A stretch of 64,000 bases of DNA from an uncultured Methanomicrobiales archaeon (lineage in GTDB: Archaea; Halobacteriota; Methanomicrobia; Methanomicrobiales; Methanospirillaceae): assembly GCA_963697895.1 (NCBI GenBank), contig OY969100.1:736001-800000 (forward strand), in the 5' to 3' direction. The notes below the pieces were generated by a model. It made no database searches and had not been told where the DNA came from. It saw only the letters and a list, made by a program, of their open reading frames with translations. Positions 731 to 44,718 of the stretch are shown here, one piece after another; within the stretch, counting starts at the first letter, position 1; the number at the start of each line of letters is the position of its first letter. The position numbers and the translations under genes are program-made.

Positions 731-803
731 CGCCCCGGCCGGGATTCGAACCCGGGTCAAAAGTCTCCGGAGGCTTCTAGGATATCCACTACCCTACCGG
801 GAC
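731..803 (-). tRNA. tRNA-Arg(CCG), with one extra A in the 3' strand of the anticodon stem
   Basis: Reverse complement GTCCCGG TA GGGTAGTGGATATCCT A GAAGC CTCCGGA G(A)CTTT TGAC CCGGG TTCGAAT CCCGG CCGGGGC G; acceptor stem, T arm and anticodon loop present. Confidence 0.9.
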
Positions 804-852
804 GCAGGCGCCTCTATATTATTTCCCTTTTGGTTATATTAAAGAGCGGGGA

Positions 853-1881
853 TCAGGTACGACGCACCTGGTACCGGTACCATATCTTGCACGCCCCTTC
901 ATGGCTCACCATGCAGGGACCGATCGGCGTCCGTGGATTACATCCCTTTCCAAAGAGTCTGCAGTCCGAAGGCTGGGCAATACCCCGCAAAACCCGGTCG
1001 CAGATGCAGGCAGAATGCTTCCCGACATGATGGAAAACGATCCCGAATTTCTTTTGTGCGTCATATCGTTCGAATTCTCCCCGGATTCGGAGTCCGGAAC
1101 CGGGTATAACCGGGAACCCCCGCCATTCTACATCAGCCGGTTCGAAGACACGGTGCATTATTTCCTGAGCCCTGACATTACCCTCACAGCTCACCGCCCG
1201 TGGATATGCATTTTCAAGACGATATGTCCCCTCACGTGCCTGGCGTACCAGCATCAGGAGACCGAGAAGGATATCGTCCGGTTCAAAACCTGCAACCACC
1301 TGCGGTACAGGGAACCGTTGATATTCATGATATCCCATCACGGTGCACACATGGCCGGGAAGCATAAACCCGTCAATCTTCGCCTCCCCCTGTTCGAGAA
1401 GCCATTGCATGGCAGGAGGCACCACCCGGTGGCAGGAAAGGATACTGAAATTTGTTGGGGGCTCCGTCAGAATAGTGGCGGCTACGGTAGGGGCCGTGGT
1501 TTCAAACCCGACCGAAATAAATACAACCTCTTTTTCGGTTTTCCTGGCGATATCGACTGCTTTATGGACACCCTGCACCACCCGGACATCTCCCCCGCAG
1601 GATTCGAGGGATCCCTGAGAACCCGGGACGCGAAGGAGATCTCCATACGTTGCAATGATGCAGCCCCGTTCGGCGAGCTCGAGTGCAGCATCGATCTCTC
1701 CCTGCGGGGTGATGCAGACCGGACAACCCGGACCCATGACAATCTTCAACATTTTCGGGAGAATGCTGCGGATCCCGTGACGGGCAATTGCTGCTTCGTG
1801 CGTTCCGCAGATATGCATGAAGCAGAGATCCCGATCGGTGATCGACTCCAGTTGTCGTGCAATATCCTTTCCAATCGCCAT
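853..1881 (-). CDS. hypD: Hydrogenase maturation protein HypD
   Basis: CGTH, GPGCPVC, GFETT, PGHV motifs and C-terminal GPCMVSHEGAC. Confidence 0.97.
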   Translation of the reverse strand: MAIGKDIARQLESITDRDLCFMHICGTHEAAIARHGIRSILPKMLKIVMGPGCPVCITPQGEIDAALELAERGCIIATYGDLLRVPGSQGSLESCGGDVRVVQGVHKAVDIARKTEKEVVFISVGFETTAPTVAATILTEPPTNFSILSCHRVVPPAMQWLLEQGEAKIDGFMLPGHVCTVMGYHEYQRFPVPQVVAGFEPDDILLGLLMLVRQAREGTYRLENAYPRAVSCEGNVRAQEIMHRVFEPADVEWRGFPVIPGSGLRIRGEFERYDAQKKFGIVFHHVGKHSACICDRVLRGIAQPSDCRLFGKGCNPRTPIGPCMVSHEGACKIWYRYQVRRT

Positions 1882-1923
1882 AATGATGAGGATTATTTAT
1901 AATTTGTACATATAAGTATAGGT

Positions 1924-2968
1924 GTGGTAACAGGAAACATCATCGCCGGTACCGTTGTACTGATCGGCCTGGCATTGGCCCTCATTACAAGTTTGATCCT
2001 CAGACTGGATAAAGAAAAGAGCCGATCAAACCGAATCAAAACTCGATGATATTATCGTACTTGCGATTGGAAAGCCACTCGTCATCACGATAATCGTCGT
2101 GTCGATCTATTTTGCCCTGAACTATTACGCCGAAATTCCGGAACAATACCAGTGGATTCTGGACAGCAAATATATTGATTCCGTTTATATCGTCATCGGC
2201 GCCTGGATCGTATCCAATTTCGCCCACAATTTCATCAAGGTGTATGGAACCTGGTTTGCCTCGCGGACGGATACGGAAATTGACGACCGCCTGATCACCC
2301 TTCTTGAACTGATCGCAAAGTACCTCATCTGGTTCATCGCGTTCCTGTTGATCCTGTACACCCTTCAGATCGATATTACCCCGTTCCTCGCCGCCGCCGG
2401 TATCGTTGGCCTCGCGATTGCTCTCGCGGCTCAGGATATCTTATCCAATTTCTTTGGCGGAGCGATCATTACCCTCGATAAACCCTTCAAAGTGGGTGAT
2501 CGGATCCAGATCGACACCCAGATCGGGGATGTCGTCAATGTCGGTCCGCGGAGCACCCGGATCATGACCCTCGATAATCAGCTGGTCACCATACCGAACA
2601 ACAAGATCACCACGAGCGTTATCACCAATTTTTCGATGCCGGATGCCCGGCTCAAGATCAGAATTCCGATCGGGGTGGCGTACGGGACGGACGTGGAACG
2701 GGTAAAGAAAATATTACTTGAAATCGCCGATGAGATCGGGGCAGTATCCAATCTCGTCCTGCATGATCCGTCTCCGGAGGTATTTTTTCTCGAATTCGGA
2801 GAATCGAGCCTCAATTTCCAGATGGTCGTCTGGACTCACGACTTTTCAAAGGTATTCGATGTCAAAGACATGGTTAATACGCGAATAGTAAAGCGGTTCG
2901 AAGCAGAAGGAATCGAGATCCCGTTCAGGCAGGTCGACATTCACGTCAGGTCTCGGGTCGATCTCTGA
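1924..2968 (+). CDS. mscS: MscS family mechanosensitive channel (apparent +1 frameshift at 2002-2006)
   Basis: ALAAQDILSNFFGG, PFKVGDRI and GIEIPF motifs; N-terminal TM segment from GTG 1924 joins in frame if AGACT is read as AGCT. Confidence 0.9.
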
Positions 2969-3003
2969 ATACTTTTTTCATCCTTCGATTAAGATCCAAA
3001 CCT

Positions 3004-3732
3004 ATGTTCGGTGTATCCACTTTCTGTCTCCATCATCAACCGCTTGCGTTCGCAATCGACACGATCTCAACACTAACGGATACCATCGAGATCATGGACG
3101 ACGGGCCCCATTATCTCGTTTCTTCCGAACTCCTGGAGAGTTATGTACTTTCCTTCACCCTCCACGCACCGTCACGGGGAGTCAACATTGCAAGCGTACT
3201 TGAGCCGATCCGGAAAGCCAGCGTAGAGGTGACCGGGCAGTGTTTTCAGATTGCCGGTGCGGTAAATGCTCCGGTGGTGATTCATCCCGGCTATTTTGCC
3301 TGGGAAGAAGAACGGGGGGGTGCCACCCGGCAGTTCAGGCGTTCACTTGGTGAGCTCGATGCCCTCGCGGAAGAGTATTCAACCACCTATTACGTCGAGA
3401 ACATGGGAAACTGGAATTATTTTTTTCTTCGTCACCCCTCGGAGCTTCCCCTGATCGGGAAGACCGGGCTCGCCCTGGACGTCGGACATGCCCATCTCAA
3501 TCATTGCCTTGACGGGTTCCTTGACCACCCGATCCGTCATGTACATCTTCATGACAACAAGGGGGAGGAGGATTCGCACCTGCCCGTCGGTCAGGGGACG
3601 ATCGATTTCACTCCGGTAATGAAAGCGATAAAAAAGAACAAAGCAGTACCCATCATCGAGGTATCGGATTTCGAAGGTGTGAAGACGAGCATTGCCCGAT
3701 TGAAGGGGATTATCGGAACATCGAAAGGCTAA
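3004..3732 (+). CDS. Sugar phosphate isomerase/epimerase (AP endonuclease 2 TIM barrel)
   Basis: HAP, HPG, VENM, LDVGHA, HLHDN...HLPVGQGTIDF motifs. Confidence 0.9.
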   Translation: MFGVSTFCLHHQPLAFAIDTISTLTDTIEIMDDGPHYLVSSELLESYVLSFTLHAPSRGVNIASVLEPIRKASVEVTGQCFQIAGAVNAPVVIHPGYFAWEEERGGATRQFRRSLGELDALAEEYSTTYYVENMGNWNYFFLRHPSELPLIGKTGLALDVGHAHLNHCLDGFLDHPIRHVHLHDNKGEEDSHLPVGQGTIDFTPVMKAIKKNKAVPIIEVSDFEGVKTSIARLKGIIGTSKG

Positions 3733-3980
3733 TTATTCCCTCAAATCTCACGAACCTTTTTTAATGGAAATGTGTGCTCGCACCAGGCCCTGCGTTCCTC
3801 CCCGCAAAAAAAGGGTATCTCCGGAGGAAATCACGTCAAAATCAGGTTTTTTATGGACTTTTCCGCAATCTTTTAAACCTATAAACCCCACATTATTGAT
3901 GCACAGTATGCCTTGTGGCGTAGCCGGCATAGGGTTTCTGTGGAAGGATGCTCTGCAGGATGCTCCACTTGATATGCATT

Positions 3981-4054
3981 GCCTATGTGACACAGCCCGG
4001 TAGTGTGCCTCCTTGGTAAGGAGGAAGTCCCGAGTTCGAATCTCGGCATAGGCT
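3981..4054 (+). tRNA. tRNA-Thr(GGT)
   Basis: GCCTATG/CATAGGC acceptor stem; anticodon arm CCTCC TTGGTAA GGAGG; T arm CCGAG TTCGAAT CTCGG. Confidence 0.96.
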
Positions 4055-4136
4055 TTTCGAGAATTCCTATCGAGGATCAAACTTCTTTTTCTTTTTTATT
4101 ATCAATCCGGTCGTATTATCAAAAGAGGTGAAGTTA

Positions 4137-4226
4137 ATGCAGGTTAAAAAGGAAGAAGAAGGGCCCCTTGACAAAGGAATCCATGAATCAAGGATTCGTC
4201 TCTTTCAGACTTCTATCCGGATTTGA
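4137..4226 (+). CDS. Possible 29-aa small ORF
   Basis: GAGGTGA Shine-Dalgarno 5 nt before ATG; MQVKKEEEGPLDKGIHESRIRLFQTSIRI. Confidence 0.25.
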   Translation: MQVKKEEEGPLDKGIHESRIRLFQTSIRI

Positions 4227-4431
4227 TTCGTCTTTCCAACCGTAAGGGAATATAATAAAGCATTTTTTTCTCCAAAATATCCATATGGCATACAGAAAGA
4301 AATTTTTTTAAAGAAACAGCAGACATCGACGAACTGTTGATTAATGAACCCACTGTCTTGGTCGGGATGTACTTCAAAGGCAAACGGTTATGTACAAACG
4401 TTCAATTCGTTAAAAACTAAATCGGGAGAAA

Positions 4432-5607
4432 ATGAAACAAAATACGAGTGCGCAGATTGTAAAGGAAATCATGAGGGATTATTCCCGCATGACCGGACTT
4501 GACCCGGCCGGTTGCCATCCACACCGCTACCTGTGGACGGATGCGTTCTCCGTCTGCAATTACCTCGAACTTTTTTCACAAACAAAGGATGAGACATACC
4601 TTACTATGGCATTGCGCCTCGTCGATAAAGTGCATCACACGCTCGGCCGTCACCGTGATGACGACGATCGCTCGGGATGGATCAGCGGTCTCGACGAGAA
4701 CGCGGGTGAACTGCATCCGACCGCGGGAGGATTGCGCATCGGGAAGAATCTCCCCGAACGGAGGGCCGATGAGCCACCCGACGAGCGAAGGGAATGGGAT
4801 CGGGACGGGCAGTACTACCATTACCTGACGAAATGGATGCATGCCCTGAACCGGGTGACCCGGGTGACCGGAGATCCGACCTATCTGGGATGGGCGATGG
4901 AGCTTGCCCGGACGGCACACGCCGGATTCACCTACCTTCCCGCTTCTGGCGACCGGAAGGGGATGTTCTGGAAGATGAGCATAGATCTCACCTACCCTCT
5001 CGTCCCCTCGATGGGCCAGCACGATCCTCTCGATGGGTTCGTCACCTACAGCGAGCTGCAGGCGACGGCTACGGTAGATTTTGGCAAACCTGTGCATCAG
5101 GATCTGAGCGCCGAGATCGCCGATATGGCTGGCATCTGCCGGAGGAACAACTGGGTCACGGATGATCCGCTCGGCATCGGTGGTCTTCTGTTCGATGCAG
5201 TTCGCATCGTTCAACTAATGGTAAAAGGCGGTCTCCGGTACGGGATGCTGCTGGAAGACGTCGTGGATTCGGCCCTGTCCGGCATAGAGGCCTACTCGAA
5301 AGGCAGTTCCCAGAGTCTGCCTGCCGATTACCGCCTTGCCTTCCGCGAGCTCGGACTGTCCATCGGATTGCACGGGGTGGAGCTGCTTCGGGAAGAGATC
5401 GTGGAACACCCCGGTTTATTCGGCCGGAAGAGTCCTGTATACCAGGCAGTTGACGCGCTTCTGGAATACCTGCCGCTTGCGGAAGAGATAGAACGATTCT
5501 GGATGGAGTGGAAGAACAGGGAGACCCTGAACTGGAAGGATCATCAGGAGATCAATACCGTAATGCTTGCAACCAGTCTTGCGCCAAGGGGATTCCTGGC
5601 AATTTAA
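4432..5607 (+). CDS. Conserved hypothetical protein, probable helical (alpha/alpha barrel-like) enzyme
   Basis: 391-aa ORF with RYLWTDAF, DGQYYHYLTKWMHAL, WKMSIDL, HDPLDG and RLAFRELGL blocks; fold is an inference. Confidence 0.8.
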   Translation: MKQNTSAQIVKEIMRDYSRMTGLDPAGCHPHRYLWTDAFSVCNYLELFSQTKDETYLTMALRLVDKVHHTLGRHRDDDDRSGWISGLDENAGELHPTAGGLRIGKNLPERRADEPPDERREWDRDGQYYHYLTKWMHALNRVTRVTGDPTYLGWAMELARTAHAGFTYLPASGDRKGMFWKMSIDLTYPLVPSMGQHDPLDGFVTYSELQATATVDFGKPVHQDLSAEIADMAGICRRNNWVTDDPLGIGGLLFDAVRIVQLMVKGGLRYGMLLEDVVDSALSGIEAYSKGSSQSLPADYRLAFRELGLSIGLHGVELLREEIVEHPGLFGRKSPVYQAVDALLEYLPLAEEIERFWMEWKNRETLNWKDHQEINTVMLATSLAPRGFLAI

Positions 5608-5726
5608 TGTCCACCATCACTTGTATCCGCCCGGAGTAGGGGATCTGCAAAAATAATGTTTTCGGGCATTTTTTGATGTCCGTGTCCTGATCACAGTTAG
5701 GGCTCCCATAATCGTTTTCCGCATTA

Positions 5727-6197
5727 TCACCGGACAGTATACCCCTTTCCTTCGAGAAATACTTTCGTCAATTCCTCCACATCCGGTGAAGAACGGGAGA
5801 TCAGCCGTTCGCCCTCTTCCCAGACGAAACGGAGAACGGAATCGCCGGAATGCAGGGCCATGGTTCCGGTCACATACCCGATTTCCTCCCCGGCAGGACG
5901 ATAAATACGCATAATTATACACCGGTATATTTTACATTGTGCCGGGCTTGTTTCATGAATCGTACAGACCACCCTGTCGAGGTCCGGGCGGAGAAATAAA
6001 CAGGCTTCAGGGTGTTGCTCCAGCCAGTTTCTTTCGTCAAAGAGGGCATGTTTGTCTTCATCAACCCGGGCGTTGAAGGACGCACCTGTGGATACCGAGA
6101 TGCAGGCGAACGTGTAAGGGCCGGTCTGCTTTTCTATGGCGATATAATGACCCATATACATACAGCACCGGCCACATTGATGGCAGTTGAATGTCAC
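5727..6197 (-). CDS. YkgJ family Cys-cluster (CxxCxxCC) protein
   Basis: CHQCGRCC ... CLFL ... CTIHETSPAQC. Confidence 0.85.
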   Translation of the reverse strand: MTFNCHQCGRCCMYMGHYIAIEKQTGPYTFACISVSTGASFNARVDEDKHALFDERNWLEQHPEACLFLRPDLDRVVCTIHETSPAQCKIYRCIIMRIYRPAGEEIGYVTGTMALHSGDSVLRFVWEEGERLISRSSPDVEELTKVFLEGKGYTVR

Positions 6198-6487
6198 AAG
6201 AGATTACTTTGGATGTCCTCTTTATGAAACCCCCTCTTTTAAACATAAATTAATGTCCTTTATTCCTTCGACATTCGATTCTGCTGTAATTTCCTTATGA
6301 ATTATTCAATCTTTTGTTGAATCCGATATAACCTGACGGTTACACAATTGAAAGTATAAATTACACTCCATATGTGACTATTTACCAAAACAAACCCATA
6401 AGAATGCTTTTTCTGGAAAGACTTTATAGTACTCTCCCGAACAGGATCCTGATGCTGAGATAATTAGCAGAAAACAGGAGAAAGGAT

Positions 6488-7342
6488 ATGAAATCGCGAA
6501 TCATCGTTCTGGGGCTTGTTGTCATGGCACTCTGTATCGGGTGCGTCATGGCAGCGGTGCCTCCGAACGCAACCTTTGAGACTCAGGGAATCAGGTCAAC
6601 AGGAACTATTTCAGTCCTGAAAGGATCCGTTGCGACATCCACAACCATGGTAATGACCGTAGCAAATAATAACGACGGCATTAACGCACCGCCCCTTGAG
6701 GCCAGCAGCGACAGTCCTGGCGAGCGTCAGTCAACTAATGTTTATTCAGAGATGACGGATGCGAAGAACGGTCAAAATATCGAATATTCGAACACAATAA
6801 CTGCAGACACGGGCAATAAGGTGCTTGGCACCTGGAATACACAGTCACATCGATCCATTCAGTACGAGACAGACCCGACCAAAGACGGCCGGATGACCTC
6901 AAATGAGAGGATCGTGATGGATGTTGTCGGTAATTCGGGAAGCTCCGAGGATGAATACCTTTGTCCGTTTGCATCAGGTAAGTCGGCAGACTCGCCGGCA
7001 TTCTGTAATATTGTACAGATGGGGAGCACCCTAGATGCGACATACGCGAACGTTGTCAGTGATGCTGCGAGTAGAGACATTCAGGCAACTGCTGACTTCC
7101 CGGTGGAGGCCCAGTACTTAATCAGCGCAAAAGGTGTCCTTGTCGATACCCCGGACGGATTGGTCTCACAGCCATACACCGGTTCGATCAACGCGTTCAT
7201 GGATGTGCACACACAGGAAGCTCGGGGAAATAACACCGTGCCGGAGGGAGATTTCGTTTATAAGGAGTCCACATCGGCCAGTGGCTACATCGACAGTTTC
7301 GTGAAGAGTATGTATTACCAGGATGGCGCAATCAGGATCTGA
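6488..7342 (+). CDS. Secreted Ser/Thr-rich envelope protein, possibly sheath-protein-like
   Basis: Signal peptide, NATFETQGI, CPF...P.FCN.V..GS, terminal ASG.I..F.K.M.Y; TTTATA upstream, T-run downstream. Confidence 0.7.
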   Translation: MKSRIIVLGLVVMALCIGCVMAAVPPNATFETQGIRSTGTISVLKGSVATSTTMVMTVANNNDGINAPPLEASSDSPGERQSTNVYSEMTDAKNGQNIEYSNTITADTGNKVLGTWNTQSHRSIQYETDPTKDGRMTSNERIVMDVVGNSGSSEDEYLCPFASGKSADSPAFCNIVQMGSTLDATYANVVSDAASRDIQATADFPVEAQYLISAKGVLVDTPDGLVSQPYTGSINAFMDVHTQEARGNNTVPEGDFVYKESTSASGYIDSFVKSMYYQDGAIRI

Positions 7343-7536
7343 AATCTGATTTGACGAGAGATAAGGAATAATATCCTCCACATTCTCTTTTTTTCACGAA
7401 AAATGGTAAAGATCATTCTCCTTCTCTCGTTATGGAACATCCGGCGATTTTTACTAAATCACGCTGCAGATTTCAAAAACCCTTATATGATAGTACCGTA
7501 TAATACGTTATTGTTCGACAAAGGAGTTGGATTAGG

Positions 7537-7989
7537 ATGAAACTGGAGGAATACAAGAAAATTATCGCGAATGCGATCACGAAAGAAGTAGAATCATACA
7601 CATTTTATCACGATATTCACGCGAAAGTTAAGGATCCCGCGCTGAAATCACTTTTTAAGGAACTCGCTGATGAAGAGACAAAGCACCGCGTTCTCCTCGA
7701 AGGATATCTGTCAGGGACCAGACCGATGCATTTTAATGAAGCAAAGGATTTTAAGATCTCCGCGACTCTCACGAAACAAGTTCCGACTGTGAATATGAAA
7801 CCCATCGAGGGTATCGCGCTCGCAATTAAAAAAGAGGAAGATTCTATGAATATGTATATTCAGTTCTCCACGTTGAGCACTGAAGCGGAACAAAAGAACG
7901 TCTTCCAGGAACTTGCAAAGATGGAACTCGGACACAAGGCCCGACTTGAAGATATCTACACAAACATGGCCTTCCCAGAAGTCTGGTAA
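7537..7989 (+). CDS. Rubrerythrin/ferritin-like diiron protein
   Basis: Two E...ExxH half-sites (AITKE..FY, ELADEETKH; AIKKE, ELAKMELGH). Confidence 0.9.
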   Translation: MKLEEYKKIIANAITKEVESYTFYHDIHAKVKDPALKSLFKELADEETKHRVLLEGYLSGTRPMHFNEAKDFKISATLTKQVPTVNMKPIEGIALAIKKEEDSMNMYIQFSTLSTEAEQKNVFQELAKMELGHKARLEDIYTNMAFPEVW

Positions 7990-8172
7990 TCTTGGCGGTG
8001 GATGAGTAAAAAGTTCCTAAAATGCTTTGGCATTTGACTGGAACCTTTTTTTAAACTTTTATCTGCAGTTATTCTTTTTCAATGTTCATAATTACTATGA
8101 AAGAGACCATACTGCAATGTTTTATCGCCTTTCACCCTGAAATACTACGTATTCGAAGTGATGGTTTATTCC

Positions 8173-8986
8173 ATGGCCGGCCTCGAAGAATTGGTGCACA
8201 TAATACCGCTCGGATTTGAAATTGATCGGGCGGTGAAACCGTTTGAAAAATACAGTGCAAACAGGGCGTATATCCTGACCATCACAGACCATCCTAAATA
8301 CAGACTCACCCGTTGAGATGGAAAAAAATAAAAAACAGCGATACTATGACGCAACTGTTACCCGACTCCTGAAGGAGAGGGGAATAGATGTCCGGATCCA
8401 GAAAATTGATATGTTCGATATCCTTGATGTGATGAGAACAGTATCCGCAATCATTCTTAAGGAAAAATCGGAAAACAACAGGGTGTACCTGAATATGTCA
8501 GCATGCGGACGCCTGACATCTGTAGGAGCAACGCTTGCTGCGATGGCTCACGACATATCCATATATTATGTACGGAGCGATGGATACTCGAGAAGTGTGG
8601 AAGAAGAACGGGAACACGGTCTCTCGATATGTACCAAACCACACATATGGCAACTTGAAAATTTCCATATCGCACTCCCCGATGAAACGAGTGTCAGGAT
8701 CCTTGTCCGCCTTTCAGGGGAGGAACAGGGAATGACGACCGAAGCACTGCTTCGCTACCTCTTCGAAGAGAAGGTACCGGGGTTTGATGAGGACTATCAT
8801 GCACTCCATATGATCGATCGCCGAAGAAAACAGAGCAACTACCTGATGAAACTGAATAAGGGAATTCTCACAAAGATAGAACTCGCAGGGTATATAGAAC
8901 GGAAAAGGTCTGGCAGGAATACGAATGTTTCTATCACTGAGTCTGGTAAATATATCGCATATATCAGCGGATTAATCCAACCGTGA
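8173..8986 (+). CDS. HFX_2341/DUF6293-like regulator, CARF-like N-domain plus winged HTH (apparent +1 frameshift at 8302-8306)
   Basis: VHIIPLGFEIDRAVKPF N-terminus from ATG 8173 joins the 8318 ORF (VYLNMSACGRL; ITESGKY wing) when AGACT is read as AGCT. Confidence 0.8.
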
Positions 8987-9502
8987 ATTAAATGGAGGAT
9001 CGCAGAGAAGGATCCTTCGCCCATTTTTGTTAATAATGCTAATCTTGTTAATTATAATAACATTAAATAATGATTTAATAATAGAATAGTTAAGCAGAGG
9101 GAGGTGAAGAAAGAGACTGCGTTTTAGTTAGCAAAGTTAAATCGGCCACCTTGAATGTGATATAATATTATTCCCTATACAATTGCAATATCTGTTTTTT
9201 GGAACAACTTTAAGAATGTACAAATCTGACATTTTATCTCATTGGCATTGTACTAGAATTAATCGGATGATAATATTCATCTAGTTTTCATAAACAAGGA
9301 AATTTCGTAAATTTAATTCGGTTTGATCTCGGAACAGAATCGCAGTTGAATTGATTTCATTTTCATGAAGAATGTTGTTCGATATATTATTTTCCCTTTC
9401 TATCCTCTTTCCAGCGCATGATAACCAAAAGAGAAGGCTAAAGGCCCCCGTTCCTTTGCAGATATTTTCAAAAGATTTAATAAGGTATCTTATCTATCTT
9501 AT

Positions 9503-9633
9503 AGCAGGTGCATTAGTGTCCAACTAAATCACCGACCAAGACGTTCAATCCAAAGGCGTTCATCCTCCCGATTCCATCACCAAGAGAGAGGGTGGATAGG
9601 GAGGATAGTGCCTCCTTCAGGAGCTTGTCTTTT
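9503..9633 (+). ncRNA. Candidate structured small RNA
   Basis: TTTAATA at 9476-9482; hairpin 9507-9533; long stem 9555-9612; CTCC-TTCA-GGAG; ends in a T-run. Confidence 0.4.
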
Positions 9634-9749
9634 GATATCCGTTCTGACAGATAGAGAATCATTCCGTCAATTCAGTTATATGTAATTGAATGTTGGTGGA
9701 TCTCAGTGTTAAAGGGTTTAAATATCACCAGGTGATAGATTACCTCATC

Positions 9750-11087
9750 ATGCAGTTCATGAAATCCGGAAGTCTGAGCCGAGGAGGATATATTATGTTT
9801 ATTTCGTGTTTGATATCGCTCCTTGCATTATTACCGTTGAATGCGAGCGCAGAATCCTCCTCGTCTGCTACATCAGGTATAGATTCCGGCGTTGGGTATT
9901 ATCAGATTGATTCAGTCCCCGAGGGTGCCGAAGTCCTGATGGACGGACAGTTCAAGGGAGAGACTCCGATTACCATTCCCGTTTACAGTACAGTTCCCCC
10001 CGGACATACCGTGGTTTTAAGCCTTGCAGGTTTTCTTCCTTGGACCGGTTCATTTCGGACAAATCCGCTGCCAGGTGAAGTCGTCCCTATTCTCGCCGAT
10101 CTACAGCCGATAAATCCAAGCGGATCCCTTTTGGTAACCTCTTCCCCGACTGGCTCTCTCGTGACCGTTGACGGTGACCGGGGACAGATGACCCCCTGGA
10201 CGTACACCAACCTTCCACCCGGAGATCATCTTGTCTCGGTATTCCTTTCCGGGTACCAGACCTTCACCACCACCGTGGCCGTCCCTCCGGGCGGTTTTGC
10301 CACGATCCATGCGGATCTCCCCACGTTATCCAATGCTGGGGTATTACAGGTGATTTCAACACCGGGCGGTGCTGATGTGTATGTCGATCAGGTCTTTGCA
10401 GGGATAACCGCGACCACCATAGGAAACCTTCAGGATGGGAATCATAAAGTAAGGTTGCGTTTAACCGGCTATGAGGACTGGACGGGAGATGTACAGATTC
10501 AGGGGGGAAAGACCACAACGATAACTCCGACACTGGTTCCCATTTCCCAGGCATCTACAGGGGATATCCGGGTTTCATCCACCCCTCCGGGGGGATCGGT
10601 ATACCTTGACGGGGTTTTCCAGGGACTAACCCCTCATTCAGAGCATCTCGAACTGACTCAAATCACTCCCGGAGTCCATCTAATCTCCATTCAGCTCCCA
10701 AATTATCAGGATTACCAGGACACCGTCCAGGTAAATGCAAGCCAGATAATCGTATTGTCTCCTGTTCTCACACCAGCGACACAGCCGTCCGGTAATGGAA
10801 GCATGCAGATCAATTCCCAGCCTTCGGGTGCCGATGTCTACCTCGATGATCAGTACCGGGGTTTCACACCCCTTACCCTTCCGGAAGTGCCGGCCGGGAA
10901 CCATACCGTTATGATCCGGCTCACCGGATACAACGAATATGACCAGACTATCCCCGTAGTACCCATGCAGGACATCCTGATATCGGCTTCCCTCTCTACT
11001 CAGGTGATTCCCACCAAGTCTGGCTTGGTTCCTGTCTCGTTGGTGGTTGCGCTGATTTCAATCGGCCTTCTTATGAAGAGGAAATAG
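9750..11087 (+). CDS. PEGA-repeat surface protein with C-terminal sorting-like signal
   Basis: Five S.P.GA.V..DG...G.TP repeats; C-terminal PTKSG, TM helix, KRK; start codon uncertain (9750, 9759 or 9795). Confidence 0.9.
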   Translation: MQFMKSGSLSRGGYIMFISCLISLLALLPLNASAESSSSATSGIDSGVGYYQIDSVPEGAEVLMDGQFKGETPITIPVYSTVPPGHTVVLSLAGFLPWTGSFRTNPLPGEVVPILADLQPINPSGSLLVTSSPTGSLVTVDGDRGQMTPWTYTNLPPGDHLVSVFLSGYQTFTTTVAVPPGGFATIHADLPTLSNAGVLQVISTPGGADVYVDQVFAGITATTIGNLQDGNHKVRLRLTGYEDWTGDVQIQGGKTTTITPTLVPISQASTGDIRVSSTPPGGSVYLDGVFQGLTPHSEHLELTQITPGVHLISIQLPNYQDYQDTVQVNASQIIVLSPVLTPATQPSGNGSMQINSQPSGADVYLDDQYRGFTPLTLPEVPAGNHTVMIRLTGYNEYDQTIPVVPMQDILISASLSTQVIPTKSGLVPVSLVVALISIGLLMKRK

Positions 11088-11269
11088 TCCTGCAATGCGA
11101 TTCAGTCATTCTCATTTTTTCATCTCTTATGGAGTAAACTATTCCTAGACCATCCAAATTTCATCTCCGACCAGAAATGGCAGGGTTGAACAGAAAAGAA
11201 TCATAATATCTCCGGGCCATATTTCCCGATACGGATCGAATTATCTACGATGTATGAAAGGAGCCTTTC

Positions 11270-11899
11270 ATGAAAGCGGACCGCATATGTAAAACAGAGA
11301 TTCTCGGAGACCTCACCGACGCTCCATTTTACCTGCCCGTATTTGAGGATGCCTATCGGTTCATTATCGATGATTATTCGATCCCCGACAAAAATATCGT
11401 AATTTTCATCCCATGCGCCATACGAAAGCCATATAGTTCCAGTCCCAGCCATCGGCTCTTCCGGCGGATCATCGATAGTATCCTTGCTCCCGGAGAATAC
11501 CAGATCATCATTTTCGGTACCTGTGGAACCGTACCTGCGGAGCTGGAGTTGATGTACCCGTTCGCCCATTATCATTTCATGCTGGGAAAGTGCACGGATG
11601 AACGAATCAGGAGGGATTTTCACATCATTGAAACATACCGCATTGCGGGTTTCCTGGAGAAGACAAGGCAGACCTATAAAAAGAGAGTCGCCTATTGTAT
11701 CGGACCCTTCCGCGAGGCAATGATTCATGCATCTCAAAGGACCGGAATTGCTATGGATATGTTGCTTCCTTCCAATCCTACGATTGAACGGCAACGTGAT
11801 GAAGATTGTCCGTTCCCTGAAGGGAGCCTTTCGATGAAAGAGTACGTGGATGAATTTCGTGAAGGATTGCAGGAATTGAAAAACACACTCAAACCGTAA
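11270..11899 (+). CDS. Stand-alone DUF5591 (archaeosine synthase ArcS core-like) protein
   Basis: FIPCAIRKPYSSSPSH and GTVPAELELMYPFAHY motifs. Confidence 0.75.
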   Translation: MKADRICKTEILGDLTDAPFYLPVFEDAYRFIIDDYSIPDKNIVIFIPCAIRKPYSSSPSHRLFRRIIDSILAPGEYQIIIFGTCGTVPAELELMYPFAHYHFMLGKCTDERIRRDFHIIETYRIAGFLEKTRQTYKKRVAYCIGPFREAMIHASQRTGIAMDMLLPSNPTIERQRDEDCPFPEGSLSMKEYVDEFREGLQELKNTLKP

Positions 11900-12014
11900 A
11901 AAGCTATAAAGCCCTGTGGAGATGTATGGACCGACACCGCGTCACCTGCAGAGAGCGCGTAATATTTATCGCGTCATCGATACTCATTTGTATTGGAATT
12001 CATCTGAGCAGAAA

Positions 12015-12380
12015 ATGGCAGACATTTACGAGAAAATTTACCGGGATCTTGAACATCTCGGTGTGCTTGATGTTAGACAATACGCAGTAATCCATAACGA
12101 TCCCTATCCTCCCCTCTGCATCGACCGGCTGGCTCCCGATCGTTTTGCGATTGCGCATAACCGAAATGATGATGGGACTCTCGTTCCGGATCCGGATATG
12201 GAAATTCGGGTATTCCCGGACAAAAAAATGGCAGAACCACTCACCTATCAGGATGCAAACGGCCGAAGAATTGTGTACCCTGAACCTGGCAAGGTTGATC
12301 TTAAAACGAAAAATGAGCTGACGGTCTATCTCGGGCACTGGCTGAAAGACCTGGTGGAGAAAGGATACCATCGCGAATAA
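12015..12380 (+). CDS. DUF6908/DUF1249-like protein
   Basis: IAH...GTLVPDPDMEIRV...AEPLTYQD...YLGHWLKDLVEKGY; probable start ATG 12015. Confidence 0.7.
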   Translation: MADIYEKIYRDLEHLGVLDVRQYAVIHNDPYPPLCIDRLAPDRFAIAHNRNDDGTLVPDPDMEIRVFPDKKMAEPLTYQDANGRRIVYPEPGKVDLKTKNELTVYLGHWLKDLVEKGYHRE

Positions 12381-12422
12381 AGAAAATTTCAGGAAAACGG
12401 TGTGCCCCAGACAAGAAATTCA

Positions 12423-12740
12423 CTGAGTACCTGTTCGGCCCATGGATAATCCGTCTTGGTCGCCCACCGGCCTTACGCCGTTTTGAGCAGTGGACTCGTT
12501 TTATCCACGCAGTGCCATCTATACCCGTTTGTTCGGCCCCCCAGTGCATTGTCTTTGATCGCTCACCGATCTTACGCCATTTTGAACGGATTACTCAATG
12601 CATCAGGGCATCACGGATATTGAGATACACTGTTCGGCCCTGTGATGATGCGTCTTTGTCGTCGGCAGGTCGTCGCGCCGTTCTGACTTGCAGACTGCCA
12701 TACAGCACAGCACCGGTATCCCGGTATACTCTTCTCTGAG
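12423..12740 (-). ncRNA. Tandem array of three ~100-nt structured RNA units, family unrecognised
   Basis: TGTTCGGCCC at 12432, 12530, 12631; GTCTT at 12453, 12551, 12652; CGCCRTTYTGA at 12476, 12575, 12676; variable arms stay complementary; minus-strand TTTATA at 12769-12764. Confidence 0.65.
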
Positions 12741-12877
12741 GCATATCCCAATAGTTGTCTTAATATAAAAATATATCGAAATGAGTACCGTATAAAGAAG
12801 GAGATTGTTTATAGTGTCGATGAAACGCGCATATTTTATCCGTGTATAATTAAAAAATAAATAGGAATTATCTCTCT

Positions 12878-13219
12878 TCAGTGCAGTTCTGGATGGAATT
12901 CCTTCACCGGGGCGCAAGGCCTGTCACCCGAAATAACCCTTTTTATGTCCCTATAGTGCATGATAAAGACTTTCTGCCGTATCAATGCAGTCAGTTCCCT
13001 TTTTTTAACGGAAATGAGGGGTGAAAACCATGCCGTTCCTTCCTGTTCGCCATGAAAATCGACGACTTCGGCAGCCTGATCGCTCGACAACACCAGTATC
13101 TCCTCCGGTGTGATATAGAACCGGGCCCCCGCAATCTCCATGACAAGCCCCTTTCCGGAACGCCGGGCCGAACCAACCGGGGTGTATAGCTCACACACAA
13201 CATGTCTCATGCCACTCAC
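12878..13219 (-). CDS. Hypothetical protein (113 aa)
   Basis: Protein-like ORF; alternative start ATG 13210. Confidence 0.65.
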   Translation of the reverse strand: MSGMRHVVCELYTPVGSARRSGKGLVMEIAGARFYITPEEILVLSSDQAAEVVDFHGEQEGTAWFSPLISVKKRELTALIRQKVFIMHYRDIKRVISGDRPCAPVKEFHPELH

Positions 13220-13704: not shown

Positions 13705-13822
13705 AACCAACATGCTCCAGTGTGCTGGTATCATCATATGATCAAGCTGATACTCATCAGAAAATATGGTGGCTGATACTCTTCCAGCATCATTATAAGC
13801 CTCTGCTTGGATCATGTTGGTT
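13705..13822 (+). ncRNA. Candidate long-hairpin small RNA (or MITE-like inverted repeat)
   Basis: Six nested complementary blocks closed by AACCAACATG/CATGTTGGTT; TTTATA at 13673-13678. Confidence 0.4.
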
Positions 13823-13987: not shown

Positions 13988-15727
13988 TCACCCGATTACA
14001 ATGTATGCAATTATGGAAAGAAGAAATGCAAGGAGCAATATCGCGATACTTAATGGACCGATAAAAAGGATCATCGTATTCACCGTACTGGCAAGTTGGG
14101 CAATGCGTTGAGAGCCAAAGACGACGATCCGTTCGCAGGTCACCGTGCTTGCCGAGACTTCAGCAGGTGAGAGATCCTGAAGCGCTGACTGAATCGCAGT
14201 ATTGACAAATCCCAGTATCTCTTCCGGCGGGACATGGAGACCGATTGGATTTTTTCCGGTTATCAGATTTACGACATGAGAATCAGTTGTCATTATTTCT
14301 GCTTCGTCTATTTGCATCAGGATATGATCCCGGAATATTTCTCTCGCACCCGACTCCATATTATTTCCATCGAAGAGCATATACGCCGTGGTTTGACCAT
14401 GCACCCGCACGACCAGGGTCTGTATGCCACGGTCCCCAAATCCCTGTGCACGCGTGAATGGAAGGTTGATCTCTGAGACACCAATTTCAAAGGGGTATTG
14501 ATCCAAGGAAGGTGCTTCGTCGATAGCCTGGGTGCTTGCCTTGATATACTCGGTTGCAAGAAGAGTCGCAGGGAGTACATGGCTGATATCCCCGGTAAAG
14601 GAGTTATGTGCATCAATAAATGCGATGTGAGGAAAAGAGCGATGCCCCTCAGCCATTATCATCAGACCGATGCCGACATCAAGATCTTCAGTTTTTTCCG
14701 GAGATCGGGTGCATATAAGGAGAAGGGCATCCGAAAATCGCTGGAAGAGCAAACTGACCGATCCATACCGGACTCTTTTTGAAATCGATGCGTCATTCGA
14801 ATAGGTAAGTTGATCGCGGGAGCCCTGTACTGCATCGATTATCTTGTCGATCTCTGTCTCGGAAACCAGGTTGAAATCATGGGTGGCAGCTCCGTGGGGT
14901 ACCATTACCAGCTCGTCGAATGCCCTCTGGAAACAATTTGGCAGGTTTCCCCCTCCGATCTCCCCCATCGGACCGGGATGCACATTTGGGATCGTCATAA
15001 TCACCCCGCGACGTTCCGGACGGCGGAAGAAGAGGGTTACCTCGGGTACATAGACTTCTTCGCCAATTTTACGGAAAAATTCCTCGAGGTCTTTGGATCC
15101 ATCGGTGAGATGGGCGATAAATGCATTGACAAAATCCAGAATACGAATATGAAATGTTTTATAGAGGGGTCGCTCGATCAGCCGGATCAGCAAAATAAAG
15201 CCTACACCAAAGAACAGCTGGAGGAGGAGTCCGAGGAGGAGGAACCCTGGCGGTAGAATGAGTGTCCCGAAGATCAGACCGGCAATACTCTGGGTTGCCG
15301 CGGGAATAATCATTCGACGGATACGGTAATCTGCGACAGCAACAAGTATCAGGAGACGAGAACCGAACATGAATCCCAGGGAAATGGCGACTGCAAGGGA
15401 GAGAAGTGAAACAGATAATACCAGCGAGAAGAGGGTGATGATTACCCCGAATACCATAGTCGCGAGGGCCAGCAACGCAGAACGGTTCCAGGTCATCGGT
15501 TTGCCGGTTATGTTGACGAGGACTTTCGTCAGTATTATACCGATGATTGCGGGAATAGTGAATACCAGAGATCCGAGAAAATGGTAGGAATCTCCGATCC
15601 GGAAGCTGACAACATCGAGGAGAAGCCCGATGATAATGATGATTCCGACCGAGATTGGCCAGGAAGGTGCGCTGAACAGATAACGGGCAAGCCGTTCGAG
15701 CCGTACATCTCCCTGGAGCACCATCAA
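13988..15727 (-). CDS. DUF2070 family membrane protein
   Basis: N-terminal TM bundle; VHPGPMGEIGGG, HDFN, DAHN, DGNNM and TTDSH motifs. Confidence 0.9.
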   Translation of the reverse strand: MMVLQGDVRLERLARYLFSAPSWPISVGIIIIIGLLLDVVSFRIGDSYHFLGSLVFTIPAIIGIILTKVLVNITGKPMTWNRSALLALATMVFGVIITLFSLVLSVSLLSLAVAISLGFMFGSRLLILVAVADYRIRRMIIPAATQSIAGLIFGTLILPPGFLLLGLLLQLFFGVGFILLIRLIERPLYKTFHIRILDFVNAFIAHLTDGSKDLEEFFRKIGEEVYVPEVTLFFRRPERRGVIMTIPNVHPGPMGEIGGGNLPNCFQRAFDELVMVPHGAATHDFNLVSETEIDKIIDAVQGSRDQLTYSNDASISKRVRYGSVSLLFQRFSDALLLICTRSPEKTEDLDVGIGLMIMAEGHRSFPHIAFIDAHNSFTGDISHVLPATLLATEYIKASTQAIDEAPSLDQYPFEIGVSEINLPFTRAQGFGDRGIQTLVVRVHGQTTAYMLFDGNNMESGAREIFRDHILMQIDEAEIMTTDSHVVNLITGKNPIGLHVPPEEILGFVNTAIQSALQDLSPAEVSASTVTCERIVVFGSQRIAQLASTVNTMILFIGPLSIAILLLAFLLSIIAYIVIG

Positions 15728-16381
15728 GAAAACCCGCCCAATACCAACTCGCTCCGATCTGCGTGTATATGGATCTCAGATGTCTTATAGGTGATTGGAC
15801 GTGTGTAGAAAGGAGCATTTAGGGTGAGGCTTTCATATTCCCCGCCCTCACCCGCGAGATGAATGTGATAGCGGGAAGCGATCATTTTGAGGTCTTTGAT
15901 CAACGATTCGTCGATATGAGCCCCGAGAAAATGTGGACCGAGGCCATCAGCAGCGGTAACTACAATAATAGACTCCAGTCGTGCTGCCACCTCGCGGAGA
16001 AGGGACTCGGGATCCATGTGCCAGAGGGGGCAAAATACCTTCATCGCATGTTTCGCAGCGATACGATCGATTCGCTGGCGCTGGTATTCCGACGCAACAG
16101 CGCCAGTAATAATCCCCTCAACAGGAAGATCCCGTATTCCCGCTTCCAGTTCGACGAGTTCCTCTTCCTTTTTTCCTTCCGAACGGATCTCATGGTAAGA
16201 TATCCCAGAGGCGTCGGCGATCACCGGTACCGCATCAAGGTTGGAGCTGATGGAACATGTAAGAATCGGGGTTCCGTGGCCGGATCGTCACAAGATAATC
16301 TACTTCCATATCGGAATCAATCGCACGCTGGATCGAGAGGATAGAGTCCTTTCCCCCGGAGGTCAATGCCGCCCATCCCAT
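15724..16381 (-). CDS. dph6: Diphthine--ammonia ligase / DUF71 ATP-binding protein (apparent +1 frameshift near 16249)
   Basis: MGWAALTSGGKDS PP-loop from ATG 16381, SYMFH, then GAVASEYQ, PLW, GEGGEYES in the next frame. Confidence 0.88.
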
Positions 16382-16386
16382 CCTGC

Positions 16387-17286
16387 TCACCATCTCCTGC
16401 TTCCCGGTGCCGGAAATGCCCCAAAATATGTCCGGTACCGTGTCTGCAGATCATCCCACCGCGGAAGATATTTCTGGCAACCCCGGTGTTCCACAATGAA
16501 AGCAGCGGTAATCGTACCAATTCTACAGCAATCAATTGCATCGTACCCCCGCATATATGCAGTAAGAAAGCCGGCCCGGTACGCGTCCCCCGCACCCGTC
16601 GGATCCATTCTCTCCACAGGAACCGCGGGAATGTGTTCACTTGTTCCCTGCTCATGAAGCACGCTCCCCCCGTGCCCCATAGTGAAGACTGCAATAGGTA
16701 CTCGTTGTATTATCTCCTCTTCCGTCGAATTCAATATTCGACACATTCCCAGCACTTCGTGCTGATTTGCAAATAGGAGGGATATTCGGTCAAGGATTCC
16801 CGATAACTGAATTTTCGAATAACGATGAATATCCTGCCCTGGATCGAAAGATGAAAAACCGCTCTTTTCAGCAATCCGGAGATTGAAATCCGGATCCGCC
16901 GTTGCCATATGAACGAAAGGAAGACTGGGAGCCTCAGCGTCGGCAAACGCCCGTGATGCGCCCCAGTCGAAATAGGTGACCTGATCGCCCTCCCGATCTG
17001 TGAAGATGAATGCCGCGGCAGTAGGGAGATCCGTCCTGATAAAAAATTGCCGCTGAATCCCGAGTTGGTTCATCCAGCGGTCATATTCACTCCCGGGAAA
17101 GTCAAAACCGATCGCCGATATCAGAGTACACGACTCCCCAAGCCGGGTGATTCCGGCAGCGATATTTGCGGCCCCTCCGCCAAAATCCATGTGGCGCTCA
17201 AGTATCAGTGTGGAGCTGTTTTTTACCGGGATAACAGGCACCTGCATCAGATGATCGATCGCGGTGTGACCCACGACGTATATCAT
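16387..17286 (-). CDS. PfkB family carbohydrate/nucleoside kinase
   Basis: GGGAANIA and [13 protein letters not shown] signatures. Confidence 0.93.
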
Positions 17287-17621: not shown

Positions 17622-17638
17622 TCATTTCCTCAAATTGA

Positions 17639-18620: not shown

Positions 18621-18939
18621 TTATCGTGCGGATTTCTGTTTGGCTCCGAGCATGGAAACTTTTGCGCGCCGCATGGACTTCCTGACAATTGAATTCTCAT
18701 TGGCCCCCATATCGCGTCCCCTGCCGCCGCGACCGGAGACTCCGCCTGCCGCCCCTTCCGCCGCGCCCACCGCCCCGCTGATCCCCGGTGCTCTGTTCAA
18801 GTTTCTTGACCGTAGCACCTGCCTTAAAGCGTTGATTCGGGCCTGGTGTCTTTGATTCCCCTTCAGATCTCGGAACCAGTCTGATTTGTCCTTTGACACC
18901 CTTGACCTGGACCCATTGTGTTGTTCCTGTCTTTCCCAT
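18621..18939 (-). CDS. DUF5350-like basic RGG-rich protein (apparent +1 frameshift at 18737-18741)
   Basis: MGKTGTTQWVQVKGVKGQIRLVP N-terminus and VRKSMRRAKVSMLGAKQK C-terminus join into 105 aa when AGACT is read as AGCT; AGGAG SD upstream. Confidence 0.8.
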
Positions 18940-35814: not shown

Positions 35815-35818
35815 AGGT

Positions 35819-41738: not shown

Positions 41739-41756
41739 TGCAGAACATATTAGTTG

Positions 41757-42296: not shown

Positions 42297-42554
42297 ATGA
42301 GAATTGAACGATATCTCTTTTTCGGAGTTTTTTTACAGTCTTTTCGTGACCCGGCCTATTTATCGACCGGTATCTGGAAGACCGTACGTTGTTTATTTCC
42401 ATTACAATTTACAAATATCGGATGTTTCAGAAACATAATTGCGATATCATATTTTCGGGTTTCATTGCCAAAATCTGGCATTCCACTAGGATTAAAATCT
42501 TTCGGCGCCCTTAAAATGAGCGGCGCTGATCTCTCAAGAACCCTTAAGATTCTG

Positions 42555-43262
42555 TCATTCCGGGATAGTGGTGACAATCCGCTCTTTATCAAGGAATCTG
42601 GTCAGGTATCCTGTGATCAGAAGCAGCAGCACCGCAAGGAAGAACAGGGAAACAAGAACCTGCCAGCTGATGATGAACGATGCCCCAAGCAGTTCGCGGG
42701 TAAATGTGATGAGCAGGATCAGGGCGAAGATAATCCCGAAATTGAGGATCTGATTTTCACGCATCCCAAGAAGGAGCTGGGAAAAGCCAATCAATCCGGC
42801 GGCCGATGCGATAAACAGGGGAACGATAAGGAATATATGTAAGAATATCAGGAATCCTGGGAGGATTAGGGCTCCGTTGGCGGCGGACGCCCCTCCGATT
42901 ATCAATGTGGCCGCAAGAAGCGTCAGCAGATATGCCGGTATCGTTACCCCGAGCACTTTACCTATCCATATCCTGCGAAGGGAAAGCGGTGTACAGAGGA
43001 GTGTCTCGATGACGTGCTCCTGTTTCTCCCGGAAAAATGCCTGCCCCGTAAAGATATACCCAATAAAAATCCCGAGTGTAAGCACCAGGTAAAATCCCAG
43101 CTGATCGATGCTATTGCCTGCATTACCAGGTTGGTCTGCTCCGAACGCAGGTGCAGATACAAACCCGAAGACAACGACAAAGAGGAATGCCGAGATGAGA
43201 ACATTCCTCGAACGGACGATCTGCTGGATCTCCTTTCTGGCAACAACAAGGATATCATTCAT
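42555..43262 (-). CDS. ABC-2 type exporter permease
   Basis: VARKE, REK....ETLLCTPLS...IGK; multiple TM helices. Confidence 0.88.
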   Translation of the reverse strand: MNDILVVARKEIQQIVRSRNVLISAFLFVVVFGFVSAPAFGADQPGNAGNSIDQLGFYLVLTLGIFIGYIFTGQAFFREKQEHVIETLLCTPLSLRRIWIGKVLGVTIPAYLLTLLAATLIIGGASAANGALILPGFLIFLHIFLIVPLFIASAAGLIGFSQLLLGMRENQILNFGIIFALILLITFTRELLGASFIISWQVLVSLFFLAVLLLLITGYLTRFLDKERIVTTIPE

Positions 43263-43267
43263 GGCGA

Positions 43268-44191
43268 TTATGCCTCCGCCTGACGCATTACATCCAGATA
43301 GATCTCCTCCAGTGTCCGTGAAACCTTTATCGCCTCTTCTATGCTGATCCCTTGGCGTATAAGGCAATCGAGCATGGGAGATGCTGACTTACCGGCCAAG
43401 ACCATCCGAATCCTATCACCCTCCTGAATTACTTCCTTAACCTGCGGATCAGCACTCAGAACTACGATGGCGGGATCTATCTCTTTGGGATCCGCAAGCG
43501 TAATCAGCATTGTCGTGATCCCGGTACCGGCTGTAAGTCGCTGTATCGAATCGAGTGCCTGAATCTTGCCCCGGTGAAGGATCGCAACACGCGAACAGAC
43601 ACGGGATACTTCGTCAAGATTATGCGAGTTTAAAAATATCGTAATTGATTCGCGTCTGGAAAGCTCGAGGATAAGTTCCCGCACCATATGCTGGGCTTCC
43701 GGATCGAGGCCCGATGATGGTTCGTCAAAGAACAGGATCTCCGGATCGTGGAGAATTGCCCGGGCAACGCCGAGTTTTCGTTTCATTCCCGTGGAGAGCA
43801 TCCCGACCATCTGATTCCTCGATTCAGAGAGACCGACAAACGACAGAAGTTCAGAAATCCTTTCTTCACGATGGGGTACCCGGTAGAGGCGAGCAAAATA
43901 ATCGAGGTTCTCGTACGCGTTCAGTCGTTCATACAGCCCGTTATTTTCCAGCAGTACACCAACCTTGTGGCGAATGGCATCTTGATCCGAGAGCGAATAT
44001 CCGAGTACCGAAGCCTTACCACTGTCCGGCCGGAGGAGGCCGAGGAGGAGCCGCATCGTGGTTGTCTTCCCGGCACCGTTCGGCCCGAGAAATCCAAAGA
44101 CCTCGCCCTGTTCGATCGAAAAGCTGATACCATCCAATACAGATCGCCCATGAAAACTCTTTTTCAGCCCTTGGATCTCAATAACGCTCAA
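43268..44191 (-). CDS. ABC-2 type exporter ATPase
   Basis: GPNGAGKT, LSTGMKRK, FFDEPSSGLD; probable TTG start at 44191. Confidence 0.92.
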   Translation of the reverse strand: MSVIEIQGLKKSFHGRSVLDGISFSIEQGEVFGFLGPNGAGKTTTMRLLLGLLRPDSGKASVLGYSLSDQDAIRHKVGVLLENNGLYERLNAYENLDYFARLYRVPHREERISELLSFVGLSESRNQMVGMLSTGMKRKLGVARAILHDPEILFFDEPSSGLDPEAQHMVRELILELSRRESITIFLNSHNLDEVSRVCSRVAILHRGKIQALDSIQRLTAGTGITTMLITLADPKEIDPAIVVLSADPQVKEVIQEGDRIRMVLAGKSASPMLDCLIRQGISIEEAIKVSRTLEEIYLDVMRQAEA

Positions 44192-44396
44192 AAAAAGTAA
44201 CCCCTTGTGCTCATTATTCTGATAGGCCCCATAAGGAATTCTTCTCTGTGACAGAAGATACTCGGTTGATATTGAATGATCCGGTTTATTCTCGTCCTGC
44301 CGCCGCACCAGTCCTGGCAAGCTTGTGATTTGGGAATAAATCCGGGTACAAAATATCCCATCGAGGGCAAAAGATGGCTTAAACCGATAAAAGAGA

Positions 44397-44718
44397 TTAA
44401 CCGAACAGGGCTCCGAGCCCTGCCATGCCGCTCTCTTCTTCTTCCTTCTTTTCCTCCACGGATTCTCCCGCAGCAGGGGCTTCAGCCACACCCGCGGCTG
44501 GCGCACCGGCTGCCGGTGCTGCTACAGCCGCGACCGGTGCGGCAGTCTGCCTTGCTGATCGCCTCGTCGATATTTATCCCTTCAAGGGAAGCAACAAGTG
44601 CCTTTACACGGGATTCATCAACGGCAATACCCGCGGCAGTAAGGACTGCTTTGACATTTTCTTCATTAACCTTCTTTCCTGCCTTGTGCAGCAGAAGTGC
44701 TGCGTAGATATACTCCAT
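44397..44718 (-). CDS. rpl12: Ribosomal stalk protein P1/aL12 (apparent +1 frameshift at 44544-44548)
   Basis: [12 protein letters not shown]-terminus; Ala-rich hinge and [16 protein letters not shown]-terminus restored by reading AGACT as AGCT. Confidence 0.95.

Follow-up and report, generated by a model that had tools for sequence, protein, structure and literature searches.

Six genes in a 64,000-base stretch of DNA from an uncultured Methanomicrobiales archaeon (G000:C1:736001-800000; 'the window' denotes this whole stretch) are each broken by a single extra base, at the word AGACT (AGTCT on the opposite strand) or, in one case, directly beside AGCT: a tRNA-Arg(CCG), an mscS-type mechanosensitive channel gene, an HFX_2341-like/DUF6293 regulator gene, dph6, a DUF5350 gene and rpl12. 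We regard it as nearly certain that all six genes are intact in the organism and that the insertions are assembly errors, because related strains and more distant relatives do not carry the extra bases and because an orthologue and a paralogue of the tRNA read AGCT. As to their origin, the insertions are probably consensus errors of long reads, most likely nanopore reads, at AGCT sites that likely carry N4-methylcytosine (m4C). The source genome is a single contig of 2,091,725 bases with 53.8% G+C, which encodes mcrA, and the organism is thus a methanogen. AGCT occurs 4084 times genome-wide, at 0.97 of expectation, and is hence not depleted.

Each of the six breaks is a true frame change, or a lesion of the tRNA, in the assembly (Table 1), and the six motif positions named in an earlier, sequence-only reading of this DNA were all recovered when the sequence was read there. 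In tRNA-Arg(CCG), the extra base falls in the 3' half of the anticodon stem, where AGCT reads AGACT, and the Rfam score is 43.4 bits, whereas the window's other two tRNAs reach 64.1 and 74.4. Both the orthologue in a relative of the same family (G012, whole genome of 2,174,862 bases) and the genome's own tRNA-Arg(GCG) have ggagctttt where the window has ggagactttt. Analogously, the protein-coding genes preserve their domains across or around the breaks. In the mscS-type gene a hydrophobic N-terminal transmembrane piece of 33 residues precedes the break, with the Pfam domains MS_channel_1st, MS_channel_2nd and MS_channel_3rd following in 2006-2965. HFX_2341_N is matched by profile positions 2-33 before the break of the regulator gene and 35-120 after it, together with DUF6293_C. 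In dph6, with the sense-strand context CAT[C]AGCT (extra bases are bracketed here and below), Diphthami_syn_2 continues from positions 3-44 on one side to 45-208 on the other, and in rpl12, where the sense strand reads GCAG[A]CTGCC, positions 2-40 and 48-88 of Ribosomal_60s flank the break. Adjoining profile positions thus lie on both sides of the break in these three families. In the DUF5350 gene, on the other hand, the Pfam domain (1-53 of 57) is intact and the frame change is confined to the RGG-rich C-terminal tail.

Table 1. Interrupted genes of the window, and SPPY/SPPF-type methyltransferases encoded elsewhere in the genome. Positions are those of the window unless prefixed with G000, which marks genome positions.
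Feature	Position	Strand	Extra base, motif or family
tRNA-Arg(CCG) (ARAGORN)	730..804	-	extra T 764 (+ strand), A in the RNA sense; AGTCT 762-766
mscS-type mechanosensitive channel gene	1903..2968	+	extra A 2004; AGACT 2002-2006
HFX_2341-like / DUF6293 regulator gene	8158..8986	+	extra A 8304; AGACT 8302-8306
dph6 (diphthamide synthase) gene	15724..16393	-	extra G 16249 (+ strand), directly 3' of AGCT 16245-16248
DUF5350 gene	18621..18939	-	one extra base within GGAGACT 18735-18741; AGACT 18737-18741
rpl12 (archaeal P1 stalk protein) gene	44397..44718	-	extra base 44546; AGTCT 44544-44548 (+ strand)
SPPY methyltransferases, L204/L205 pair	G000 965,298-966,164 and 1,884,823-1,885,872		PF01555
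SPPF methyltransferase L207	G000 1,658,818-1,660,101		PF01555

The decisive evidence comes from independent sequence of related strains. Twenty public runs share part of the stretch, none of them with half of its words, and the runs therefore carry related strains rather than the source strain; no RNA data are listed among them. Logan contigs of four metagenome runs from four studies (X1, X2, X4 and X5) were aligned to window positions 600-19000. Contigs of all four runs lack one base at 764, 2004 and 16249, those of X1, X4 and X5 at 8304 (X2 has no cover there), and those of X2, X4 and X5 at 18738, where X1 shows no omission. Among the rows listed, those five are the sole consistent one-base omissions in 18.4 kb. 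Considering that AG[A/T]CT centres make up 1572/2,091,725 = 7.5e-4 of all positions, the finding that three of the five read-defined positions are exact AG[A/T]CT centres has a chance of about 4e-9. For the sixth site, 19 metagenome relatives were found through the neighbouring P0 gene (protein identity 75-87%) and then aligned; all 19 lack a single base there, the gap falling exactly on the A of AGACT, at 44546. A near-identical strain was not found among the metagenome contigs, the best P0 match being 87% identical.

With relatives lacking the extra bases at all six sites, the proposal of the sequence-only reading that these genes are intact, rather than lost or recoded, is borne out, and the extra base of dph6 indeed lies beside AGCT, being placed at G 16249 just after the motif. 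That all six breaks are footprints of AGCT can be upheld in part only: the four AG[A/T]CT sites at 764, 2004, 8304 and 44546 agree with it, the signature of dph6 occurs also without AGCT (see below), and 18738 is ambiguous. In the DUF5350 gene the excess of one base is confirmed, but whereas the proposed repair to AGCT would remove A 18739 (leaving GGAGCT), relatives do without G 18738 (leaving GGAACT); both words encode Ser-Ser, and the true sequence of the source strain is ambiguous between them. Further errors had been suspected at AGACT words near 4207, 9114 and 12692, where no indel is seen among the rows listed. The AGACT at 12694 is not judgeable by frame because its region has no clear coding frame; window positions 12250-13260, about 1 kb interspersed with AT-rich patches, show no convincing frame on either strand.

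Next, the whole genome was screened for frame changes by searching 2847 non-overlapping open frames of G012 against it with tblastn, adjacent matches of one query in different frames being counted as a locus. This yielded 184 loci, 121 of insertion type and 63 of deletion type; 107 of the 184 are strong. The reciprocal search gave 92 loci in G012, and as a control it is confounded, since 51 of these echo loci of the present genome via conserved out-of-frame translation; only the filtered comparison is usable, in which seven of the 41 independent loci of G012 are strong versus 107 here. The excess of frame changes therefore lies with this assembly. Some of the 184 loci are false positives: position 39955 of the window is a gene start (RFC large subunit, as read from the translation), 47552 looks like an antisense reading frame, and the loci at G000 1,370,6xx-1,373,7xx are short, very conserved frames in what we suspect to be the rRNA operon.

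Motifs were counted in narrow windows around 102 usable loci of insertion type. AGACT/AGTCT is present in 26 of them versus 2.8 expected (p 5e-18), the top 5-mer among those listed, and AG.CT with any centre base in 38 versus 7.5 (p 9e-18), with no other of the 136 four-mers tested being strongly significant for a centre insertion. The sequence-only reading had named a lack of AGCT enrichment among genome-wide frameshifts beforehand as one of the points on which it could fail; congruent with its expectation, AG[N]CT is enriched about five-fold. Intact GTAC represents a second hot spot (28/102 versus 13.0 expected, p 6e-5), intact AGCT is found in 19 of the 102 windows versus 10.1 expected, and C and G runs (C5, G4) are over-represented at the loci of deletion type.

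These data bear on two explanations that would take the extra bases as real. One is that they are mutations of this strain, through gene decay or a mutational hot spot at AGCT. The contigs compared stem from related strains, which formally leaves room for change specific to this one. Such mutations would, however, inactivate a tRNA, a ribosomal stalk protein and about 100 conserved genes in a 2.09-Mb genome otherwise estimated to be 93.85% complete, in the face of the disparity to G012 described above, and the deletion-type changes in homopolymers are the classic error of long reads. The lesions also lack the traits of pseudogenes, in that they are absent from related strains, bound to a motif and located in the tRNA, rpl12 and dph6. 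We therefore find real mutation scarcely credible. The second explanation is programmed +1 frameshifting or another form of recoding at AGACT. All five coding breaks call for the same +1 correction at a shared five-letter word, as such a mechanism would demand, but one of the six genes is a tRNA and hence untranslated, the word appears in all codon phases and in either orientation, and relatives are without the extra base at every site, leaving nothing conserved. The probability of recoding is in our judgement practically negligible.

To place the errors more closely, a second 20-kb stretch (L211, G000 486001-506000) was compared with related-strain contigs. It contains a further AG[T]CT insertion at position 1030 of that stretch, two GT[G]ATC insertions at 14297 and 15380 (G000 500,297 and 501,380) and a CCA[G]TCG insertion at 17060, in addition to T6, T7 and CC runs with one surplus base each and an A4 run that lacks one. 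A repair scan, in which each base was deleted in turn and the mended protein scored against the relative, located the error to within about three bases in 46 loci. According to classes assigned by reading of the rows, 12 of these are AG[A/T]CT and two AG[G]CT, seven lie in or beside intact AGCT, eight fall at GTAC (GT[C]AC, GGTAC or GTACC), nine in homopolymers only and six elsewhere, with the remaining two in the suspected rRNA region. Insertions of the form [C]AGCT recur in the scan. Despite this, the link of dph6 to AGCT is uncertain, because its signature T[G]AT (sense AT[C]A), seen as CT[G]ATG at 16249, also arises without AGCT, as GT[G]ATC at 14297 and 15380 of the second stretch.

The immediate context of the AGCT errors is likewise skewed. 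With each site oriented such that the inserted base is A, C precedes the word in 22 of 31 error sites, versus 493 of 1541 other AG[A/T]CT sites, and makes up 3024 of 8168 flanks of intact AGCT. The typical event is thus CAGCT read as CAGACT, and such a strand-linked flanking context fits what strand-specific basecalling errors would give. Homopolymer indels as known from long-read assemblies occur in the same genome, but unlike these, the six sites of the window are not in homopolymers. A native-DNA long-read assembly without short-read polishing fits both the single 2.09-Mb contig and the homopolymer indels.

Which mark AGCT may carry is suggested by the closest known system. For Methanospirillum hungatei JF-1, a methanogen that also belongs to the Methanomicrobiales, three m4C enzymes are recorded, M.MhuIV at AGCT, M.MhuII at GTAC and M.MhuI at CTNAG (PMC11033074; this and the other papers are cited for those portions that were available to us). 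AGCT m4C enzymes are recorded also in Methanohalophilus mahii and in ammonia-oxidising archaea (PMC11033074), and nanopore signal has also yielded the AGCT motif of M. hungatei (PMC10689673). AGCT and GTAC, the hot spots of error in the present assembly, are accordingly two of the m4C motifs of M. hungatei. Unlike in that organism, the marks are here presumed rather than recorded, and enrichment of the third motif is weak (CTCAG 10 versus 3.7).

The gene content of the genome is compatible with such marks. Three SPPY/SPPF-type methyltransferases (PF01555) are encoded, all outside the window, with an N6_N4_Mtase fold and the catalytic motif SPP[YF] (SPPY in L204 and L205, SPPF in L207). As a rule, the SPPY motif marks m4C enzymes. 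No nuclease is recognised by Pfam beside any of the three. Orthologues of L205 and L207 are present in G012 at 71% and 61% identity, and the SPPY enzyme at 1.88 Mb (G000 1,884,823-1,885,872) is matched in 59 of the 61 family genomes sampled, with homologues in Methanoregula, Methanolinea, Methanospirillum (59% identical), Methanoculleus and many bacterial genomes. Further DNA methyltransferases of the genome are a type I HsdM/HsdS pair, two CcrM/DpnA-like enzymes with DPPY/DPPF, and a single C5 methyltransferase, which has Vsr and an EcoRII-C-type nuclease as its neighbours. It is thus plausible that C in AGCT is modified by an enzyme whose gene lies outside the window, as the sequence-only reading had proposed, because AGCT m4C enzymes are recorded in Methanospirillum and other archaea and because three SPPY/SPPF enzymes are at hand here. 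In the mechanism we envisage, AGCT and GTAC would be m4C-methylated as recorded for M. hungatei, the reads would be nanopore reads of native DNA, and the mark would disturb the signal, with the result that at a few percent of the sites a base is inserted by the basecaller or polisher.

The mark on AGCT could also be real and other than m4C, namely 5-methylcytosine (5mC, m5C), N6-methyladenine (6mA) or a bulkier modification, considering that the type of mark is not readable from an assembly. The only C5 methyltransferase of the genome is nevertheless Dcm-like and accompanied by Vsr and the EcoRII-C nuclease, and the three SPPY/SPPF enzymes fit m4C by their motif. The AGCT and GTAC marks recorded in Methanospirillum are m4C, with a lone predicted AGCT m5C enzyme, in Methanocella, pointing the other way (PMC11033074). 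In favour of such an alternative mark, insertions differ from the substitution errors reported for 5mC and 6mA in the portions available of the nanopore studies cited below. Taken together, we hold a mark of another type to be quite improbable, and m4C remains the preferred assignment.

Consensus errors at modified motifs are well described for nanopore data. With default models, about 70% of the consensus errors lay at Dcm sites (CCWGG; Wick, Judd and Holt 2019, PMC6591954), errors that modifications induce in R10.4.1 reads are strand-specific and carry over into assemblies (PMC11610603), methylation-induced ambiguities were found across 32 species (PMC11610573), and modification-mediated errors are described in Listeria (PMC10687267). 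The errors of the present assembly resemble these in that they recur at a short word, survive the consensus, depend on strand and flank, are missing from independent data and lend intact genes the appearance of being broken. The insertions are, in this sense, an artefact of a known kind, with the modest technical twist that they are insertions at a probable m4C motif.

Several observations weigh against m4C-marked AGCT as the source of the errors. In the portions available of the four nanopore studies above, modification-linked errors are substitutions (C>T, G>A and purine/pyrimidine ambiguity) at 5mC/6mA motifs and not insertions, while here one base is inserted at the centre of a palindrome suspected to carry m4C; a literature search for insertion errors at AGCT or 4mC motifs found none. 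Both the modification and the sequencing platform are deduced rather than taken from raw signal or the sample's own reads. AGCT accounts for roughly half of the insertion errors, the rest being at GTAC, homopolymers and other contexts, and the T[G]AT class and CCA[G]TCG fit no known methylation motif. Only a few percent of AGCT sites are affected, with five centre insertions versus 74 intact AGCT in the 38.4 kb compared with related-strain contigs, and the word is not depleted across the genome, as stated above. As regards enzymes, comparison with the PDB gave generic beta-class hits only, AGCT, the word read by type II m4C enzymes of the M.MhuIV, M.Mma5219II and M.Nca01I kind, is not assignable to any one methyltransferase of the genome, and the only C5 methyltransferase looks Dcm/CCWGG-like, not AluI-like. 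Finally, the contigs compared are from related strains (mostly 90-99% alike), not from the source strain.

The first of these points, the difference between substitutions and insertions, is the main obstacle to filing the errors simply with the published ones, and it keeps alive an explanation that needs no modification at all: a context-specific error of the basecaller or polisher at unmodified CAGCT and GTAC, in which the k-mer itself prompts the insertion. The preference for a preceding C demonstrates that context matters, and insertion classes without a known motif (T[G]AT, CCA[G]TCG) are present in this assembly too. However, both hot spots coincide exactly with m4C palindromes on record for a Methanomicrobiales methanogen (PMC11033074), and AGCT alone stands out among the 136 four-mers for insertions at the centre. 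A general weakness of a common basecaller at AGCT would also be expected in print, and the literature search found no report of one. We therefore judge an error of context alone to be unlikely, though to be reckoned with, and favour consensus errors at m4C-marked AGCT.

A wider proposal can be put forward tentatively, and we lean against it at present: the centre insertion CAG[A]CT and its GTAC counterpart could constitute a so far unpublished nanopore footprint of m4C, laid down by nuclease-less methyltransferases conserved in the 59 of 61 sampled family genomes, in which case methylation of AGCT and GTAC would be a family-wide epigenetic system rather than one of defence. If the insertions truly mark m4C, AGCT/GTAC methylation would be mappable in uncultured archaea from assembly errors alone. 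As it stands, the error spectrum hints indirectly at the motifs that an uncultured methanogen methylates (AGCT and GTAC, probably as m4C), and it also points to conserved orphan methyltransferases. The main value of the finding lies in quality control, as a single-contig genome here contains on the order of 100 false frameshifts. Caution is due for 'pseudogenes' of this genome, for its reduced completeness estimate and for any claim of recoding. The finding alone brings no new biology; its biological interest is low, and for annotators it is a clear warning.

Some approaches and candidates were set aside in the course of the analysis. Frame-restoration screens based on open reading frames only were too noisy, since 1860 windows (15% of all positions) passed and no AGACT signal emerged. 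A hexamer-based coding-frame screen was weak, ranking sense AGACT third of 1024 (19 sites versus about nine expected) and detecting two of the five coding sites. Co-occurrence of GATC at many loci is due to chance, the genome having 21,422 GATC sites.

Several further features were observed along the way. The conserved SPPY methyltransferase has homologues of 55-70% identity in numerous bacterial metagenome genomes (Anaerolineae, WOR-3, Dehalococcoidia and others), which suggests either horizontal spread or binning contamination. The C5 methyltransferase lies in a locus at G000 1,077,321-1,081,238 (L202) that comprises an EcoRII-C-type nuclease, a Vsr mismatch endonuclease, the Dcm-like enzyme and a 321-residue frame without Pfam match, and which, judged from its sequence, looks like a complete m5C restriction-modification system with a repair partner. 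CTGAG and CTCAG are the two most under-represented 5-mers of the genome (observed/expected 0.65 and 0.66), and CTAG is its most under-represented 4-mer (0.41). Avoidance of CTNAG, an m4C motif in M. hungatei, may reflect restriction pressure here. At G000 1,169,751-1,171,855, seven frame-change loci fall within two neighbouring genes, mostly at C/G runs, which points either to locally poor consensus or to genuine decay of both genes, and an insertion-type locus is located at G000 1,494,664-1,494,684. In the window, contigs of three runs have one additional T after position 7379, shortly beyond the end of the open reading frame at 6488-7342; the difference stems either from variation between strains or from a non-coding error of the deletion type.

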